Shown here: positions 18,912 to 25,754 of the stretch, in pieces | How positions within the stretch are numbered: the first letter of the stretch is position 1 | How the letters are laid out: each line of letters begins with the position of its first letter | Assembly: GCA_963817915.1 (NCBI GenBank) | Contig: CAWFQL010000018.1 | Coordinates: 1-64,000, forward strand | Length of the DNA: 64,000 nt | Source of the DNA: an uncultured candidate division Zixibacteria bacterium | GTDB taxonomy: Bacteria > Zixibacteria > MSB-5A5 > UBA10806 | Direction: 5' to 3' | Position numbers and translations under genes: made by a program | Notes under the pieces: model-generated | Told to the model about the DNA's origin: nothing | What the model saw: the letters and a program-made list of their open reading frames with translations, nothing else | Databases searched by the model: none

Positions 18912-20622
18912 ATGTCAGGTAAGACAATTTCGGGAAAATCTCGGTATGATGAATCCGAGAAATTGAATTTAGCATCAGAACTTAAAAAATTCTCCACGTC
19001 ATCGAATATTCCTCAATCAGAAAATCCCAAGAATCAACCCCATGCCTTGGGAAGCGAGGATTTGCAGGCACTTTACGAGGTTTCTCGCGCCGTAAATTCT
19101 ACTCTAATTCTCGATGAAATTCTCAATATCGTCATGAAAAAATCCATCGAGCTGCTCAAGGCGGAACGAGGCTTCCTGATGCTGCTTGATTCTAACGGCA
19201 AACTCCAATTTAAAACCGCCCATAATATCAAAAAGCAGGAAATCGACAAAAAAGACCTTCAGATATCGACCACCATCGCCGAGGGAGTGGTAAAAAGCGG
19301 CAAATCGCTCTATACCTCCGATGCTCTCAGCGACCAGCGATTTTTCCAGAAGAAATCAATCCTCGAAATGAATATCCGTTCGGCAATGTGTGTTCCGCTT
19401 AAAATAAAGAATCAAATCATCGGCGTCGTCTATCTGGATAATTCATCCAAGGCCAATATCTTCCTGCAGTCCGATCTCCACTTATTCGAAATGTTTGCCG
19501 ATCAGGCCGCCCTTGCAATCCAAAATGCCCAATTATATACCGAGCTCTATGCTCTTCAAAGATTCCAGGAAGCTATTTTAGATAAGACTCCGGTCGGCAT
19601 AATTGTAATCGAGGATAATGGCGAGATAATATCCTTCAATAACGCGGCATTCGAATTATTCAAGAAGACCAAAATTCTTAACGGTGCCAAAAGCGATTCC
19701 GCGCTTGGCAGAAATTTGATTGAGCTACTGCCAAAAACCGAACAAAATTTCTGGCGCGAAAATATAGCCAATTCAAAACTGAATTCCGTCGAAATCGGTT
19801 CGAGACGTTTTAAAGTGGGCGAGGACGATATCGTTTTAAGACTACATTTTTCTCTGTTCGATCATCACGACGACAAAAAGGCGGGCAGGATAATCGTGGT
19901 GGAAGATATTACTGAACGAGTCATTATAGAACAGCATTTGGTTCTTTCCGAAAAGCTAATTGCGCGGGGTGAAATGGCTGCCGCTATTGGGCATGAACTT
20001 AATAACTATCTCGCGACCATATCTTCCAACGCGCAGTTGCTTGCCATCAATGTCACCAATCATCAGTATGATAAAATTGACCAGAAAGTCGAAAACATCG
20101 TTAGTCATGTAGATAAAATGAAAAGATTCACGTCGGGTCTTATGGATTTTTCCAGCCTCGATACGAAGAAAGCCCCGGGCGATATCATTTCCCTGATCGA
20201 TGAAGTAATATTTTTCGCGAAGCCACAGCAAAAATTCCGAGGAATCAAAATCGAAACTCGATATTCAACTGATAATGCCACAATCGATATGGATAGCGGC
20301 CAAATCCATCAGGTTTTGCTCAATCTTCTTATGAACTCCGCCGACGCTATCAATGAGAAAAAAATCGAAAATGGTTTTATCAAGATAGAGACTAAGTCCG
20401 ATGACAAGAAATTTCATCATCGAGATTAGCGATAATGGCCCCGGAATCCCTAAAGAAATTCTGCAAAAAATATTTGAACCTCATGTAACTTCAAAAAATA
20501 CCGGCCATGGTCTTGGCCTTTCAATAAGCCATAGGATAATGTTGAGCCACACGGGAAAATTAAAGGCTGGCAATAATCCCAATGGCGGAGCGATATTCAC
20601 AATAGAATTACCGTTGAGGTAG
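18912..20622 (+). CDS. GAF-PAS sensor histidine kinase (frameshift at ~20410)
   Basis: GAF (RSAMCVPL), H-box GHELNN, N-box NLLMNS; DNGPG and GHGLGL boxes lie in the adjacent frame (20401-20622). Confidence 0.85.
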
Positions 20623-20626
20623 CCCC

Positions 20627-23600
20627 ATGAACCCTCAATTGATTCGAGGGCGTTTTCAGATTATAAAAAAAATAGGCGAGGGCGGAGTTGCCCAAATTTA
20701 CCTTGCTGAAGATAGACTGACCAAAAGAAAAGTCGCCTTAAAGATAGCATTGGCCGACGAACCTATATATATCGATGCGCTAAAACGAGAATATAAATAT
20801 GCCTCGATTCATCGCCATCCGACAATAGTCTCGCCATATTCGCTGCTATACGATAACAATATCCCGATAATAGTCATGCCGTTTATAGATGGCCAATCAT
20901 TATCAGATTTTATATCGCAGGCGGCGGCAAATAATGATAATAAAAATACGGACGAAGTCTTCCGCTCAATTTTATCGCAGATGCTGGAGGTTGCCGCATT
21001 CATACATTATTCCGGATATATTTATGGAGATTTCAAGCCCGACAATTTCATGATCAGAAACAATCCGGAGTCTCAGAATATTTACCCGTCGCTGGCTCTT
21101 TTTGATTTTAACCTCGTATCGAAAATAGGGGAGAATCCATTCAAGAGTGGTACTATCGAATATGTCGCTCCGGAAGTGCTGACAGGTCGTAATCCCGTGG
21201 CGTCTTCTGACCTCTATTCTATAGGCATTACAATGTATGAGCTCATCACGGGCAATTTGCCATATTCATCGAATGAGTATTCAAGCTTGATAAAAGAGAT
21301 CACAGAGGTCCCTCATTTTGACATGTCGAATATCCCGCCACAATTCAGGGATGGGTTAACTTCGCTTTTATCGCTTGATCCTGGTCAACGTCCCCTGAAC
21401 GCCCGCGACGCATCCAGGATTTTTGGTCTGGGCGATGAATTCGATAATATTGTCAATGAGAGAATTGATTATTACTTTTCAAGCGGCATTCCGCCATTCG
21501 CAAAGACATTGCAAAACGGGTTCAATGATTCCTTAAAAAGCGGAAATGGGAAAATATTTATACTGCAAGGCCTGGATTTCAATTCAGCCGCGTCAGAATA
21601 TCTCGCCGTCGAATCAGAGCTATCCAACCATGAGATTGAACGAATTCCATGTTCATATACCAATGACGAAATTGCCGGAATCTTTGATAATATTTCCGAA
21701 AATATCCAAAAAGATCGGAATAATCGGCCTATTATGTTTATTGATAACCTCAACACATTAGATTCCAATAATATTTCAAAATTAAGGGCGCTATTGAGAG
21801 AACCATCTCTATTGCCTGTCGTCTCGGCGAACCTTCGATCCAAATTGAGCGATCTGCCTTATACGGTTATCGATCCTTTGGCAGGGCAGTCATCATCCTC
21901 GCTTGGTAAGGCTATACTCGATTCATATCTAAAACTTGATTCCACAAGCCTTCAAACAGAAGCCCTGACTGAATCCTGCGGCAGCGATCCGATACTCATC
22001 AAAATCTATCTAAAGGACAATATCAGAAATGATAAATATGATATTTTCTTAAAAGAGGGTAACCTTGATCAAAACCTTTGCCCCGAATCTTTGATAGAAA
22101 TCAATAATATCATTGGTCGAAAAGCTGGAATACTTGACGATAGCCAGAAATTATTACTCGCAAGGCTTTCCGCATGGAACGGTACAATTCCCATGATTCT
22201 TCTTACAGACTTCAGCGACACCGATCACGATATTTTGGATAGTCTCATTCAACTGGGTTATCTGGCTCGAAACAAAGAATCGCTCCATTTTTCGTCGGGG
22301 TATTCAAGAGATTACTTTTATCAATCCCTTTCAGATAATAACAGGAAGGCAATCCATCGCTCTTGGGCGAAAGCCTCCGAAATATACCTGGATAGTGAAG
22401 ACGATAAAATTGAATCATGTGCCTATCATTGGGGAGAGGCCGATGACCCCCAAAAATCTTATGATTCCAATCTGCATGCGGCCAGATTTTTCTTTAACAA
22501 GGGTGCATTATCTAAGGCCAGGAAATCCGCCGAAAAATTGCTATCACTGTTAAAGGAAAACATAGGCTCACCGATTGACTCTCTCATGATCTTTGCGGAT
22601 ATCGCTAAGCAGGAGGGGGATTATCAACCTGCCAGAGCAAAATACCTGGAACTGCTGGCTATTCTCCATCATGAAAAGAAAATCGATATCAAGGCCGAAA
22701 CATTCAAAGATATGGGTGATTTATACCGGTCTCTCAAGAAATCATCAAAAGCGCTATATTATACACGCAAAGCTCTCGCCTTATATACCAAATTGAACAA
22801 TATCCAGCAAATAGCCAATTGTCATAATAATATCGGACTCGCCTTTTGGGTAGATGAGCAATATTCAAAAGCGCTGGAATCATTTATGTTAGCCCTTAAA
22901 ATCAATATAGACTTGAAAAATTATAAGGAATCCGCTAAGATCCATTCCAATATCGCTATTATCAAAGATATATCCGGCGCAACCTCTGAAGTCGTTGATC
23001 AATTCGAAACTGCGTTGAAATATTCACAAATGGCTTCGGATCCCTGGCTCGAGGCCTTGATCTCGAACAATCTCGGATTTTTTCATCAGAAAATCGGCGA
23101 ATATAAAAGCGCGATTCCGTACATTGAATATTCACTCCAGCTATCAAGAAAAATCGGATATACTGAAAATACCTTAAATTGCCTTTCCAACTTGGGGCTT
23201 TGCAAACTAAAGACCGGTGAATTATTCAGCGCTATTCAGCATCACCAGGATTGCAGTGAAATGGCGGAAACATTTGGTAATCGTTTTCTTGTGGCCGATT
23301 CAACTCGTCATATCGCCGAGGCGAGTTTGCTGATGGGGAATTATTTATTGGCTGATAAGGCGCTTAGGTCAATCGAAGAAACTAAGATATTCAGGGACAA
23401 TATTCAGCTTAAAATGGATACTGAAATCCTCAGGTGTCAATGGTATTATGCTACGGGAAATTACAAATCAAGTTCCGATACCGTAAATCGAGTCATTTCG
23501 GAGGCAAATCGCATCGGAAATCCCGGAATGAAATTGGAAGCGGAATTGATATTGGCCTCGATAATACTGGAAAATGAGCCTCAAACTATTTTTGAATTGC

Positions 23601-24100
23601 TCAAAACTATCCTGAATGAATCGAATCGGCTGGGTTATGGTGAATTGGGAGATAAAGCAGGGCTTTTAGCCGCGCAGGCATACTTGAAGTCAAATGATTT
23701 CTTTAATGCCGAAGGATGGATCGAAAAAATCCTCTCCAATTCCAAAATCACCAGGAAAAATTATCTCGAAGCCCGATCGATATTTGGCTATTTGAAGTAT
23801 TTGCTTAATAAATTCGATGAGGCTATTGAGATACTTATCGAAAACGAGAGCTCGTCGGCGGGTTCGGGGTATCTGCCATCGGCTCTGAATGCGGCCTTGA
23901 TGCAAATAGAAATTTTTATCGCTTGCGGGAAAATTTCCCGAACCCGGGAATCATTGAACCGCGCCAAAGCCTACGCGGAAAAAATGCTTTCGACACTTCC
24001 CGATGATGTGTCGCTGAAATTCTATCTCAATTCAAAGGCGCTGGTTTATCTTAAAAAAGCGGAAGCAACTGTAGGTGACAAGGAACTTATTCAGATTTAG
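20627..24100 (+). CDS. Ser/Thr protein kinase with degenerate NTPase-like region and TPR repeats
   Basis: GEGG, VALK, YGDFKPDN, DFN, GTIEYVAPE, SDLYSIG; C-terminal NNIG/SNIA/NNLG/SNLG TPR-type repeats. Confidence 0.85.
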   Translation: MNPQLIRGRFQIIKKIGEGGVAQIYLAEDRLTKRKVALKIALADEPIYIDALKREYKYASIHRHPTIVSPYSLLYDNNIPIIVMPFIDGQSLSDFISQAAANNDNKNTDEVFRSILSQMLEVAAFIHYSGYIYGDFKPDNFMIRNNPESQNIYPSLALFDFNLVSKIGENPFKSGTIEYVAPEVLTGRNPVASSDLYSIGITMYELITGNLPYSSNEYSSLIKEITEVPHFDMSNIPPQFRDGLTSLLSLDPGQRPLNARDASRIFGLGDEFDNIVNERIDYYFSSGIPPFAKTLQNGFNDSLKSGNGKIFILQGLDFNSAASEYLAVESELSNHEIERIPCSYTNDEIAGIFDNISENIQKDRNNRPIMFIDNLNTLDSNNISKLRALLREPSLLPVVSANLRSKLSDLPYTVIDPLAGQSSSSLGKAILDSYLKLDSTSLQTEALTESCGSDPILIKIYLKDNIRNDKYDIFLKEGNLDQNLCPESLIEINNIIGRKAGILDDSQKLLLARLSAWNGTIPMILLTDFSDTDHDILDSLIQLGYLARNKESLHFSSGYSRDYFYQSLSDNNRKAIHRSWAKASEIYLDSEDDKIESCAYHWGEADDPQKSYDSNLHAARFFFNKGALSKARKSAEKLLSLLKENIGSPIDSLMIFADIAKQEGDYQPARAKYLELLAILHHEKKIDIKAETFKDMGDLYRSLKKSSKALYYTRKALALYTKLNNIQQIANCHNNIGLAFWVDEQYSKALESFMLALKINIDLKNYKESAKIHSNIAIIKDISGATSEVVDQFETALKYSQMASDPWLEALISNNLGFFHQKIGEYKSAIPYIEYSLQLSRKIGYTENTLNCLSNLGLCKLKTGELFSAIQHHQDCSEMAETFGNRFLVADSTRHIAEASLLMGNYLLADKALRSIEETKIFRDNIQLKMDTEILRCQWYYATGNYKSSSDTVNRVISEANRIGNPGMKLEAELILASIILENEPQTIFELLKTILNESNRLGYGELGDKAGLLAAQAYLKSNDFFNAEGWIEKILSNSKITRKNYLEARSIFGYLKYLLNKFDEAIEILIENESSSAGSGYLPSALNAALMQIEIFIACGKISRTRESLNRAKAYAEKMLSTLPDDVSLKFYLNSKALVYLKKAEATVGDKELIQI

Positions 24101-24115
24101 GAATGGATCGTCTCT

Positions 24116-24143
24116 AAAAAAAGGGGCCGCTCGTGGCGGCCCG
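24116..24143 (-). terminator. rho-independent terminator of the small peptide gene
   Basis: Minus strand GGGCCGC-cacga-GCGGCCC followed by C and a T7 tract. Confidence 0.8.
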
Positions 24144-24167
24144 CAAACAGAACTAATTGGAAGTGGC

Positions 24168-24245
24168 TCAGGAACCTGCTCCAATGTACCCGGATGGGAC
24201 GATCCTTTCCTCTAGTTCTTCGATTTCAAGGATAAGATCTGCCAT
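24168..24245 (-). CDS. 25-aa peptide MADLILEIEELEERIVPSGYIGAGS (RiPP-precursor/signal-peptide-like)
   Basis: AAGGAGGTG RBS just before ATG, TGA stop, dedicated terminator, upstream TTGACA (24373-24368). Confidence 0.75.
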   Translation of the reverse strand: MADLILEIEELEERIVPSGYIGAGS

Positions 24246-24533
24246 GCTTCACCTCCTTTGGGAGAATCATTAAGGATATGGTAATTGAAAGCCCCTTCAT
24301 AGGGCAATTGCAATTAGCATCCTATCATCTTTCCGCTGCGTTCAAATAAAACCAACATATCCATGATTGTCAAGTTAAAAATAACGAATGTAACGTATGG
24401 TTTACATGTGTAATTAAAATGAATTATTAATATATTACCTTTTCTTTATTCCGCCCATATTGTTTCCGTGAGCATAAGATTGAACCCGCTTCGCCGCCCC
24501 ACAAATATTGATATTTTTTTCTTAAAAAAAGTC

Positions 24534-24561
24534 TTGACAGCCAATTTATTTGGCCTATATT
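24534..24561 (+). promoter_or_regulatory. sigma70-type promoter candidate for the cohesin/dockerin cluster
   Basis: TTGACA-16-TATATT preceded by an A-tract. Confidence 0.5.
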
Positions 24562-24569
24562 TACACTTG

Positions 24570-24830
24570 CCTAATGTAGCACCGCGATGACTTAAAAAGT
24601 CGTACACTTCTTTGCGGTAGCAGGTCACTTAAAGAAAACTCAACAACGTTGAGGTAAAAGCCAGACGATGGGCATCACTGCCAACATGCATAAAGGTGAT
24701 TAGCATCAAGAATCCTGGCATTCTATAATCAAGAGTCAACACATTGATCGACCGAGAAATGACGTCTTTGAACCGACAATCCAATCTTAAGAGGTTTAAA
24801 GCAAGCGATCCGACAAGGAGCGTTATTTAA
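24570..24830 (+). ncRNA. putative structured RNA / long 5' leader (unassigned)
   Basis: Several nested inverted repeats directly after the promoter candidate; no known family recognised. Confidence 0.3.
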
Positions 24831-25004
24831 CAAAATCTTTTTTGGCAAGCATTGTTTTCAAATATCCCAAAGCGTAATTGACAATAAACCAATAATCGGG
24901 GATGCAGTGAGAAGCAAAATGATTATTAGGCCAATGACCAAAAGCGCCGCGCATAAGCGCCAATCGAAAAAAAGCATTATCCTTATAAGGGGGAATTTAT
25001 AGTA

Positions 25005-25754
25005 ATGAAAAAGTCCATCATGACTTTATCGTTTGTGGTTTTGATGGTTGTGGCAAATGCCGGATTGGCGTTAAGTGATCCTTGTGATGTTATTTTGGCA
25101 GTCAGCGGGGCAACTGTAAATCCTTGTGAACCCCGAAGAGTAAATCTACCAGTTTATATAGTTAACCCATGCAGCGTCGGCGGATTTACGATCGACATTG
25201 CCGTTCCTGATTCGGGGTGGATAGCATTTAATCCCGATGATACCCTTGCGGCCGATACTATCGGAAGCCGCATCAGCGATTGGGATTATTTTCATTTTTC
25301 CGTCTTTGACCATTCCCCCGGACATATTCGCGTAATGGGCGTGGCCAATCTCGATTCAGTTCCTAATTACCTTCCCCCGGGAAACGGTTTATTATGTACT
25401 CTTCACCTCGATTTTAACAATTACTTTGTCACCGACACCTGTCAGATGCTTAACTTCGAGAGGGGAAATGTTTCGGATCCAACCGGGTATATTTTATATA
25501 ATGATACTTTGGAGGAAAACCAGCTCTGTATTCGGGCGTGTCCCTGCGAAGGAATTAGAGGCGACGCAAATTGCAGCGCCGCTCTAAATGGTCTTGACGT
25601 TATCTTCCTGGTTGCTTATTTTAGAGGCGGTCCTTCTTATTGCGGCCTTTGCGGCGGCGATGCCAACAATTCGGGCAATGTAAATGGAATTGATGTGACA
25701 TTTCTTGTTAATTATTTCAAAGGCGGCCCAGGTCCTGTGGGATGCCAATATTAA
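25005..25754 (+). CDS. secreted cohesin-like + C-terminal dockerin protein
   Basis: Signal peptide; LPVYI..VGGFTI..SDPTGY; GDANCSAALNGLDV / GDANNSGNVNGIDV. Confidence 0.8.
   Translation: MKKSIMTLSFVVLMVVANAGLALSDPCDVILAVSGATVNPCEPRRVNLPVYIVNPCSVGGFTIDIAVPDSGWIAFNPDDTLAADTIGSRISDWDYFHFSVFDHSPGHIRVMGVANLDSVPNYLPPGNGLLCTLHLDFNNYFVTDTCQMLNFERGNVSDPTGYILYNDTLEENQLCIRACPCEGIRGDANCSAALNGLDVIFLVAYFRGGPSYCGLCGGDANNSGNVNGIDVTFLVNYFKGGPGPVGCQY

Follow-up and report, generated by a model that had tools for sequence, protein, structure and literature searches.

A conserved 25-codon gene beside a kinase-TPR gene in Zixibacteria probably belongs to an undescribed circuit of peptide processing and signalling

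Introduction

Is an unannotated reading frame of 25 codons that lies tail to tail with a large kinase gene a gene at all, and if it is one, what might its product do? We asked this of a 64,000-nucleotide stretch of DNA (the window: positions 1 to 64,000 of contig CAWFQL010000018.1, assembly GCA_963817915.1) from an uncultured Zixibacteria bacterium (GTDB lineage Bacteria; Zixibacteria; MSB-5A5; UBA10806). The open reading frame (ORF), read from the window sequence, occupies 24245..24168 on the minus strand, starts with ATG, stops with TGA and encodes the peptide MADLILEIEELEERIVPSGYIGAGS. Convergent with it is a gene for a Ser/Thr kinase that carries tetratricopeptide repeats (kinase-TPR). A preliminary description, made from the letters alone, took the ORF for a stand-alone gene whose acidic segment recalls the leader of a peptide that is made by the ribosome and modified after translation (RiPP). 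It suggested that the product is either an orphan precursor modified in trans or a ligand or substrate of the kinase-TPR protein, and that it possibly controls the divergent cohesin cluster.

We find that the ORF is conserved as a coding sequence across the phylum, that it keeps company with the kinase-TPR gene, and that it is present and absent together with a gene for a membrane protease fused to an export adaptor. Probably it belongs to a so far undescribed circuit of peptide processing and signalling, because its leader resembles a docking tag and because it stands tail to tail with a kinase that carries a repeat domain of a peptide-binding type.

Results

Conservation and coding

An ORF of this size is by itself no evidence of a gene, because the 13 kb around it contain 191 ORFs of at least 20 amino acids. 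It is conservation that raises this one above chance. We compared it with 285 genomes, which are the same set whether the class or the phylum is taken and which include 24 genomes of the window's order (the relatives are also filed under the name Candidatus Zixiibacteriota). A six-frame search with the window's peptide found it in 17 of the 23 other genomes of the order, at 60-78% identity, and with a profile of 16 sequences (A1), 18 of the 24 genomes gave a single copy each. That profile matches 188 of the 285 genomes, and a wider profile of 49 sequences (A2) matches 231 of them (81% of the species genomes), mostly once per genome; by subset, these are 163 of the 198 high-quality genomes and 105 of the 130 genera. 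Gene callers and family libraries miss the gene, although it is this widespread: Pfam and NCBIfam scans of the peptide at E<=10 gave no family. The window's own genome has no paralogue, either by tblastn or by a profile run over all six-frame ORFs.

The copies vary in the manner of a coding sequence. The 20 first loci all keep the Shine-Dalgarno (SD) site, the start and the frame, and their stop may be TGA, TAA or TAG but is in the same place in each. For 88 unique coding sequences anchored on the codon of an invariant proline, entropy averages 0.79 bits at the first codon position, 0.73 at the second and 1.64 at the third, with 1.93 bits at the third base of that proline codon. The ratio of nonsynonymous to synonymous change (pN/pS) in the same sequences is 0.38 as a whole; taken separately, the leader has 0.24 and the tail 0.63. 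Within the order, the peptide is 60-81% identical, compared with 27-45% for the TPR half of the neighbouring kinase. Rfam gave no match at E<=1 for window positions 23500-25500. The whole-transcript fold has a z-score of -1.58, and beyond the terminator and a small hairpin at the SD site we saw no sign of a structured RNA.

The gene has its own signals (Table 1), and the ORF, ribosome-binding site, TTGACA and GC hairpin with T7 tract that had been read off the window beforehand are all present and all conserved. The CTTGACA of the promoter and its 17-nt spacing are invariant in the 18 loci of the order. A consensus promoter scan leaves this promoter unlisted because the second hexamer fails the scan's rule. 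Of the 88 homologous copies listed, nearly all have a GGAGGTG-type site before the start, and in the 20 first loci the stop is followed by a GC hairpin and a T-rich tract that differs in length. The view of a stand-alone gene holds up, with its own promoter, SD site and terminator kept across the loci of the order. In the 5' untranslated region (UTR), the pattern CTCC-NNNN-GGAGG was found again in most of ten aligned loci of family f1 and was not seen in family f2. Variants within f1 are CCTCGGAAGGAGG at one locus (L055) and GGGGG cores at two others (L005 and L015). This hairpin may be a translational control element.

We also tried two other kinds of small gene and rejected both. An attenuation leader peptide is ruled out by the gene's own terminator and by the lack of a downstream gene on that strand, and the membrane toxin of a type I toxin-antitoxin pair is ruled out by the lack of a hydrophobic stretch. 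On the sequence evidence, the 25-codon ORF is a genuine, coding, conserved and stand-alone small gene, and in our preferred reading it is ancestral to the phylum Zixibacteria.

Leader and tail

The 89 copies that we collected are 21-34 residues long and have two parts. The leader is conserved and has 13-19 residues, first hydrophobic ones and then (I/V)-E-x-L-E-x-(K/R)-(I/V)-A-P; in 49 aligned sequences, E9, L11, E12 and P17 (numbered as in the window's peptide) are invariant. The tail that follows the proline has 8 residues in 58 copies, 7 in 15, 9 in 6 and 10-17 in the remaining 10. Its commonest form is x-G-(aromatic or aliphatic)-S-x-G-G-Q, and in the window's order it reads (G/A)-G-(Y/F)-(I/T/S/A)-G-x-G-S. 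Tail position 4 is Ser in 64 of the 89 copies, and I, T or S in the order. None of the 89 copies ends in Thr (the window's copy ends in Ser) and none contains Cys. The preliminary description had drawn attention to the Tyr of the tail. A Tyr is not needed there as an acceptor, since two loci of the order have Phe in its place; the last Ser is Leu in one.

The kinase-TPR operon

Our synteny sample consisted of the 89 peptide copies, from all families and on loci of 3-16 kb, with five duplicate loci dropped. In 72 of the 89 copies, an orthologue of the kinase-TPR gene lies on the opposite strand and has its end at most 1.2 kb downstream of the peptide. In the order it is beside the peptide in 17 of the 18 loci, and the 18th locus is cut short. 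The kinase-TPR gene and the protease-adaptor gene described below are both at the locus in 28 of the 89 copies, and neither is in 13. Among these 13, two loci (L015 and L098) are too short downstream, three have the kinase gene about 3 kb off, and two are second copies.

The kinase-TPR protein has no transmembrane helix and so is cytoplasmic. All of the Hanks-kinase motifs are present: the Gly-rich loop, the catalytic Lys, the alphaC Glu, D-x-K-x-x-N, the DFG Asp and APE. Across 42 orthologues, whose identity to the window's protein is only 17-39%, the residues G17, G19, K39, E55, D135, K137, N140, D160, P182 and E183 do not vary. The TPR half is modelled as a superhelix with a predicted local distance difference test (pLDDT) value of 95.6. 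Its best matches in the PDB (E 5e-10, TM-score on target 0.74-0.83) are the TPR domains of LGN/Pins in structures that include a bound peptide, a likeness of fold type only, because another 404 TPR chains match at E<=0.001. Within the TPR, Asn residues are invariant at a spacing of 40 residues (N136, N176 and N216 of alignment A4).

We looked at two measures of a link between the peptide and the TPR. Over 42 loci, in a test that leaves shared ancestry in, pairwise tail distance correlates with TPR distance at r 0.34, with that of the kinase domain at 0.25 and with that of the middle domain at 0.17; the partial r of tail and TPR given the kinase domain is 0.245, which was reached by 6 of 2000 permutations, and the reverse partial is -0.08. 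When TPR residues 640-1157 were co-folded with the 25-mer, the score was 0.47 (runs of 0.53, 0.47 and 0.36) against 0.02 for the best of 3 controls, which we count as weak support. At least 69% of the contacts agree among the runs and the pLDDT of the partner is at least 42. Of 157 solved complexes, 116 reached the mark for a pass, as did 2 of 215 mismatched pairs, in a calibration without chains below 30 residues; passes at <=0.60 came from only 18 of the 157 solved complexes, and from both of the mismatches that passed. Co-folding with the TPR region had been among the checks suggested for this locus, and its outcome is a pass above the controls, though a weak one.

The suggestion that the peptide is a ligand of the kinase-TPR protein in the manner of RRNPP receptors is supported in part. 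The conserved link with the kinase gene, over the phylum and within the order, speaks for it. The TPR resembles the LGN type, and no RRNPP chain is among the fold matches listed for the TPR model.

Directly upstream of the kinase-TPR gene is a gene for a GAF-PAS histidine kinase. Among 21 wide loci, 14 have this same gene in front of the kinase-TPR gene, as do most of the 10-kb loci. The window's copy is frameshifted: a relative's 567-aa histidine kinase aligns by tblastn at residues 1-493 in one frame and at residues 501-566 in the next, and the break is within the ATPase domain. We take this to be either a sequencing error or a pseudogene. Two genomes of genus g3 that have neither peptide nor protease keep a full-length kinase-TPR gene (31% identity; Table 1) and the histidine kinase gene. 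Downstream of the kinase gene in one g3 genome we saw no diverged peptide, in a stretch part of which reads N. Two genomes of lineage g9 have no kinase-TPR orthologue.

A protease-adaptor that tracks the peptide

A second gene, of about 770 amino acids and on the same strand as the peptide, ends 180-660 bp upstream of it in 32 of the 89 copies, and in none of the 18 loci of the order. The first ~400 residues of its product match NCBIfam NF041824, the daptide intramembrane metalloprotease (4e-67 and 8e-60), and the last ~300 residues are a HlyD-type periplasmic adaptor. We refer to it as the protease-adaptor. Across the phylum, the matches to NF041824 are at 1e-45 to 1e-74 for the great majority, and down to 6.7e-35. 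At E<=1e-20 the protease-adaptor is present in 234 of the 285 genomes, nearly always in single copy.

We compared by hand the presence tables of the peptide (231) and the protease-adaptor (234) over the 285 genomes. Both are present in 222 genomes and both absent from 42; 9 have the peptide only and 12 the protease-adaptor only (21 discordant). The nine peptide-only genomes are the window's genome and eight metagenome-assembled genomes (MAGs), five of which are <90% complete. Joint absences occur in separate lineages: none of the four genomes of g3 (two of them single-contig), the two of g9, the three of f3 or the five of f4 has either gene, and the same is true of several genera of f9 and f18. 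Genes that work as partners would be expected to disappear together more than once in this way, although kinship inflates any statistic.

In the window's order, the protease-adaptor gene is kept yet unlinked from the peptide; for example, in one genome it is ~100 kb off on the same contig. In f2 the unlinked gene is followed by one or two same-strand genes of ~300 aa for Gcn5-related N-acetyltransferases (GNAT; L127:5253-7101, L128:5005-5928), which are possible candidates for tailoring enzymes. The idea of an orphan precursor modified in trans fits with this, as relatives of the same order encode the processing gene elsewhere in the genome. Pfam on 17 ORFs agrees that the window has no RiPP maturase. 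What did not hold is the expected kind of enzyme, of the radical S-adenosylmethionine (radical-SAM), LanB-like or YcaO type: what accompanies the peptide from genome to genome is a protease of daptide type joined to HlyD. For the LanB-like family PF04738, there is no match in the window's own genome, in a search that also matched none of 14 control genomes.

Outside the phylum, a pattern scan over one genome per species gave, among the matches listed and besides nine Zixibacteria records, one Burkholderiales MAG and one Deltaproteobacteria MAG that share the leader beside an NF041824-like gene. The Burkholderiales locus (L122:560-5946) has nine tandem ORFs with an EELEERIAP-type leader and longer cores rich in Asn, Gly and Pro. 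They precede a gene for an 815-aa protein in which a PqqD domain passes the Pfam cut-off (1e-7) and is combined with an NF041824-like protease (5e-66) and HlyD. In the Deltaproteobacteria locus (L123:1877-6593), two such precursor ORFs flank an NF041824-like gene (3e-61). Genes for a luciferase-like monooxygenase and an amidohydrolase are also near this locus. The two loci look like members of a wider undescribed peptide family.

Proposed mechanism

Our preferred reading, to which we give slightly better than an even chance, is that the gene encodes the precursor of a leader-guided mini-peptide that is cut after Pro17, exported as an octapeptide and tied to the kinase-TPR and histidine kinase. 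Residues 1-17 would be an acidic amphipathic recognition leader that ends in (I/V)(A/V)P, and residues 18-25 would be the product part. In the relatives, the leader would dock on an N-terminal recognition domain, similar to the RiPP recognition element (RRE) or PqqD, of the single-copy membrane protease-adaptor. The daptide-type site-2 zinc protease would then cut after the invariant proline and release an octapeptide (here SGYIGAGS), and the HlyD periplasmic adaptor would pass it towards the periplasm or the outside. The LGN-like TPR superhelix of the kinase would most likely bind the peptide, whether by the leader, the tail or both. Together with the histidine kinase, the kinase-TPR protein would read or control the peptide, and all of these with the protease-adaptor would form one signalling or feedback circuit. 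In the window's genome, the peptide may act uncut on the kinase-TPR protein, another protease may cut it, or the gene may lie in an assembly gap.

Several points weigh against this reading. The cut after proline is modelled on daptides only, and the Zixibacteria leader has K/R at -4 and I/V at -3 where the daptide leader has M and E. The window's own copy has Val at -2 (codons 16-17, 24195-24200), which is unique to it, compared with Ala in 87 of 88 unique family sequences. The NF041824 scores of the protease-adaptors are ~200-252 bits (best 251.6), and none of the 285 genomes exceeds the curated cut-off of 300. The PqqD domain is sub-threshold in three of five Zixibacteria protease-adaptors and undetected in the other two. 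We identified no exporter gene for the HlyD part. Four different queries did not find a protease-adaptor gene in the window's genome, which is the only peptide-bearing genome of the order without a detectable one; loss and an assembly gap are indistinguishable here because the genome is 93.9% complete and synteny with the relatives is too little conserved. On the side of the kinase, the protein does not strictly need the peptide, because the two g3 genomes keep it without peptide or protease. Shared ancestry remains in the covariation of tail and TPR, and a weak co-fold pass such as ours misleads in more cases than not, except where the pairing was already likely before the test.

There is a bolder version that we find doubtful, though not far-fetched. 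In it, a leader-tagged precursor of 19-34 residues would serve peptide signalling between cells, through a type of circuit that is not known from bacteria with two membranes. One protein would do both the cutting and the export, the unmodified octapeptide or the freed leader would be read by the TPR kinase with the histidine kinase, and the covariation of tail and TPR would resemble that of pherotypes. The circuit would be rewired in the window's order, with a GY.GAGS tail, an unlinked protease gene and a position back-to-back with a cohesin/dockerin cluster.

Alternative explanations

The best of the alternatives, in our view an unlikely one, is that the peptide stays in the cell uncut, at least here, as a small-protein partner of the kinase-TPR protein (an activator, inhibitor or pseudo-substrate), with the protease-adaptor having a secondary role or one in turnover. 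A cytoplasmic kinase-TPR protein would suit such a partner, and so would the synteny, which is commoner for the kinase gene than for the protease gene (72 against 32 of the 89 copies). The window's genome, where we found no protease-adaptor gene, has the promoter, SD site, ORF and terminator intact, and it was the whole 25-mer that gave the weak co-fold pass. Against it stands the very tight co-occurrence with the protease-adaptor. Leaders of this type are also, according to the daptide preprint, read by the recognition domains of proteases, and the g3 genomes keep the kinase without the peptide.

It is less probable again that the peptide is an exported bioactive one, antimicrobial or competitive, with the kinase-TPR and histidine kinase operon merely as its regulator. 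Kinase-TPR fusion genes adjoin some clusters for thiazole/oxazole-modified microcins (TOMM), and the kinase domain weakly matches TOMM_kin_cyc (2.4e-13). The fusion of a RiPP-type protease to an export adaptor would also be in keeping with this, as would the clusters of nine and two precursor ORFs beside a like gene in the two MAGs of other phyla. On the other hand, bacteriocin loci are patchy and variable, and this gene is single-copy and vertically inherited across the phylum. Its tail is 8 residues long, Gly-rich and unmodified-looking, and there are no immunity or tailoring genes among the conserved neighbours that were scanned.

We think it improbable that the kinase-TPR protein is itself a leader-guided modifying enzyme, whose TPR would hold the leader while the kinase phosphorylates a Ser, Thr or Tyr of the tail before cleavage and export. 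The kinase looks active, the two genes are adjacent, Ser is common at tail position 4, and the kinase region has weak matches to LanL and LanKC. But no hydroxyl residue of the tail is invariant, there is no lyase or cyclase domain and no Cys in the 89 peptides, and the LanL and LanKC matches are generic Hanks-domain ones, far below the cut-offs (72 and 26 bits, 2.6e-20 and 3.2e-06, against cut-offs of 650 and 575). Separately, we rejected a class III/IV lanthipeptide, as none of the 89 peptides has a Cys and the neighbour has only Pkinase and TPR, with no lyase or cyclase domain.

A pearlin-type scaffold, to which C-terminal amino acids would be added by a peptide-aminoacyl-tRNA ligase (PEARL), is highly improbable: the helix of BhaA-Ala is like the family leader position by position, but the PLALA end is absent and the gene that tracks the peptide is the protease-adaptor. 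A small RNA or a chance ORF, as a short and unannotated frame might be, can practically be dismissed in view of the codon-position pattern, the pN/pS, the conserved SD site, the stop that varies in codon and not in place, the missing Rfam match and the fold z-score.

The divergent side and the arrangement in the window

The peptide gene and a surface-protein cluster have their promoters back-to-back, ~160 bp apart, because a plus-strand promoter faces the dockerin gene (Table 1). A homologue of that gene is upstream of the peptide in 15 of the 17 other loci of the order and is a conserved neighbour only within the order; phylum-wide, the protease-adaptor gene takes the upstream position in the 32 copies mentioned above. 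Control of the cohesin/dockerin cluster by the peptide, which the preliminary description had raised as a possibility, found no support, and nothing ties the dockerin gene to the peptide system. A TGTCAAG(A/G)AAAAAA block upstream of the peptide gene is common to six loci of f2, and we read the window's copy (24515-24561 region) by eye. The window shows the derived arrangement of one order: the protease gene is no longer beside the peptide gene, and was not found in this genome, the tail has a new motif, and a dockerin gene is in the place that the protease gene has in other families.

From 25005 to 57283, the plus strand holds a long run of genes for secreted proteins with Big_9/cadherin-like repeats, cohesin, dockerin and C-terminal sorting domains of the type IX secretion system (T9SS). 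This run suggests a cellulosome-like surface assembly in an organism with a T9SS.

Table 1. Coordinates of the features discussed (window positions, except for the two orthologues in other genomes).
Feature	Position	Strand	Basis
Peptide-gene promoter: -35 TTGACA (24373..24368), 17-nt spacer, T-rich -10 TTTATT (24350..24345)	24345..24373	-	sequence reading
5' UTR hairpin CTCC-CAAA-GGAG, its pairing would cover the core of the ribosome-binding site	24253..24264	-	minimum-energy fold
Shine-Dalgarno AAGGAGGTG, 4 nt between its end and the ATG	24258..24250	-	sequence reading
Leader, residues 1-17, MADLILEIEELEERIVP, last residue the invariant Pro	24195..24245	-	alignment, pN/pS
Tail, residues 18-25, SGYIGAGS, and TGA stop; predicted released octapeptide	24168..24194	-	daptide analogy
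Intrinsic terminator of the peptide transcript: stem-loop 24142..24124 (7 G-C pairs, loop of 5), then CTTTTTTT to 24116	24116..24142	-	terminator scan
1157-aa protein with a Ser/Thr kinase domain, a middle domain and TPR, its gene convergent with the peptide gene	20627..24100	+	Pfam: Pkinase residues 10-256 (2.1e-36), TPR_12 repeats
Gene for a GAF-PAS histidine kinase, immediately upstream of the kinase-TPR gene, frameshifted (parts 18912..20429 and 20401..20622; frameshift near 20397..20430)	18912..20622	+	Pfam, tblastn
Promoter facing the dockerin gene: TTGACA, 16 nt, TATATT, 11/12 matches	24534..24561	+	promoter scan
Gene for a secreted dockerin-bearing 249-aa protein, first of the cohesin/dockerin/T9SS cluster	25005..25754	+	Pfam: Dockerin_1
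Kinase-TPR orthologues of g3	G006:C1:1073031-1076363; G013:C1:355526-358882		

Discussion

As we see it, the daptide logic of leader, recognition domain and site-2 protease is used here without visible tailoring chemistry, is fused to an export adaptor and is connected with kinase signalling of a eukaryote-like kind. Should the peptide be a signal, it would bring peptide communication, comparable to that of Firmicutes, to uncultured bacteria with two membranes. It would also be a defined ligand for one of the large and mostly orphan class of bacterial kinase-TPR proteins. The window can be regarded as a natural experiment, in which the module was broken up and the peptide gene remained beside the kinase gene and not the protease gene.

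Comparison with known systems

We searched the literature by motif strings and by topic and found, among the papers listed, no description of a module of peptide, protease-adaptor and kinase-TPR; the motif strings gave chance matches only, and the daptide work was the sole relevant result.

In Firmicutes, the SHP/Rgg system (a short hydrophobic peptide and its receptor) and other RRNPP signalling rely on Eep, an M50 site-2 protease, to mature the pheromone. There, as in our family, the precursor has ~20-25 residues, of which the C-terminal 7-9 would be the signal, and its gene adjoins, sometimes convergently, the gene of a cytoplasmic TPR receptor; an intramembrane zinc protease does the maturation. 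The Zixibacteria system differs in its output, which is a Hanks kinase and not a helix-turn-helix protein or a phosphatase, and in its LGN-like TPR. Its precursor has an acidic recognition leader in place of a hydrophobic signal-like propeptide, and its protease has a recognition domain and a HlyD adaptor. There are two membranes to cross, and we identified no import system. The LGN/Pins TPRs themselves (PDB 3sf4, 6hc2 and 4wnd, with bound peptides of NuMA, Inscuteable and Frmpd) have repeats of ~40 residues, as does the Zixibacteria TPR, but they belong to eukaryotic scaffold proteins and are 17-19% identical to it.

In the YydF/YydH (LiaK) epipeptide system, too, maturation of a small exported peptide is the work of a membrane protease with HExxH. 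The protease-adaptors match YydH (NCBIfam NF058609) weakly, at 6e-11 to 2e-15 and far under the 225-bit cut-off, and no radical-SAM epimerase is among the window ORFs or the neighbour genes scanned with Pfam.

The LEE.E.K(I/V)AP motif that the preliminary description had attributed to ammosamide/BhaA-type precursors does exist in print. The C-terminal 14-mer of BhaA-Ala is LEEIEDKVAPLALA, and its PLALA end is conserved among PEARL substrates (PMC11962472). It aligns with the Zixibacteria leader from -10 to -1. By eye, the pearlin helix LEEIEDKVAP of BhaA/AmmA and our (I/V)E(E/V)LE(E/A)(K/R)(I/V)AP are alike in residue class at all ten positions. The assignment to such a scaffold does not follow, as the PLALA end is missing from the Zixibacteria peptide and the partner that varies with it is the protease-adaptor.

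Daptides are among the closest known systems. According to the preprint on them (bioRxiv 10.1101/2023.03.08.531785), the precursors MpaA/DapA carry a leader motif ELExMEAP that is read by recognition domains, P(-1) being the last residue of the leader. The leader is removed by MpaP/DapP, in which a recognition domain is fused N-terminally to an intramembrane site-2 protease. The core is a stretch rich in branched-chain aliphatic residues, its C-terminal Thr is invariant and converted to an amine, and tailoring is carried out by MpaB, C, D and M (same source). The Zixibacteria leader shares L-7, E-6, A-2 and P-1 with this motif, and E-8 in about half of its copies.

The differences are such that we do not count the Zixibacteria peptide as a daptide. 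A C-terminal Thr, invariant in daptides, is found in 0 of the 89 copies, no NF041824 score reaches 300 bits, and no tailoring genes are among the scanned neighbours. The genes in question would encode a DUF-RRE protein, an alcohol-dehydrogenase-like decarboxylase, an aminotransferase and a methyltransferase. We looked for them among those Pfam-scanned clusters that recur in at least 3 of 21 loci spanning +-8 kb (kinase-TPR, histidine kinase, Omp85-like, protease-adaptor and NUDIX), with several shared clusters unscanned and no whole-genome search made. The core is also unlike that of daptides, with 7-9 Gly-rich residues in 79 of the 89 copies, and the HlyD part of the protease goes unmentioned in the available text of the two daptide preprints searched. 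The partner protease of the Zixibacteria relatives is homologous to the daptide leader peptidase, below the NF041824 cut-off. What sets the Zixibacteria peptide apart from daptides is its link to a kinase-TPR operon and its presence as one copy per genome throughout a phylum.

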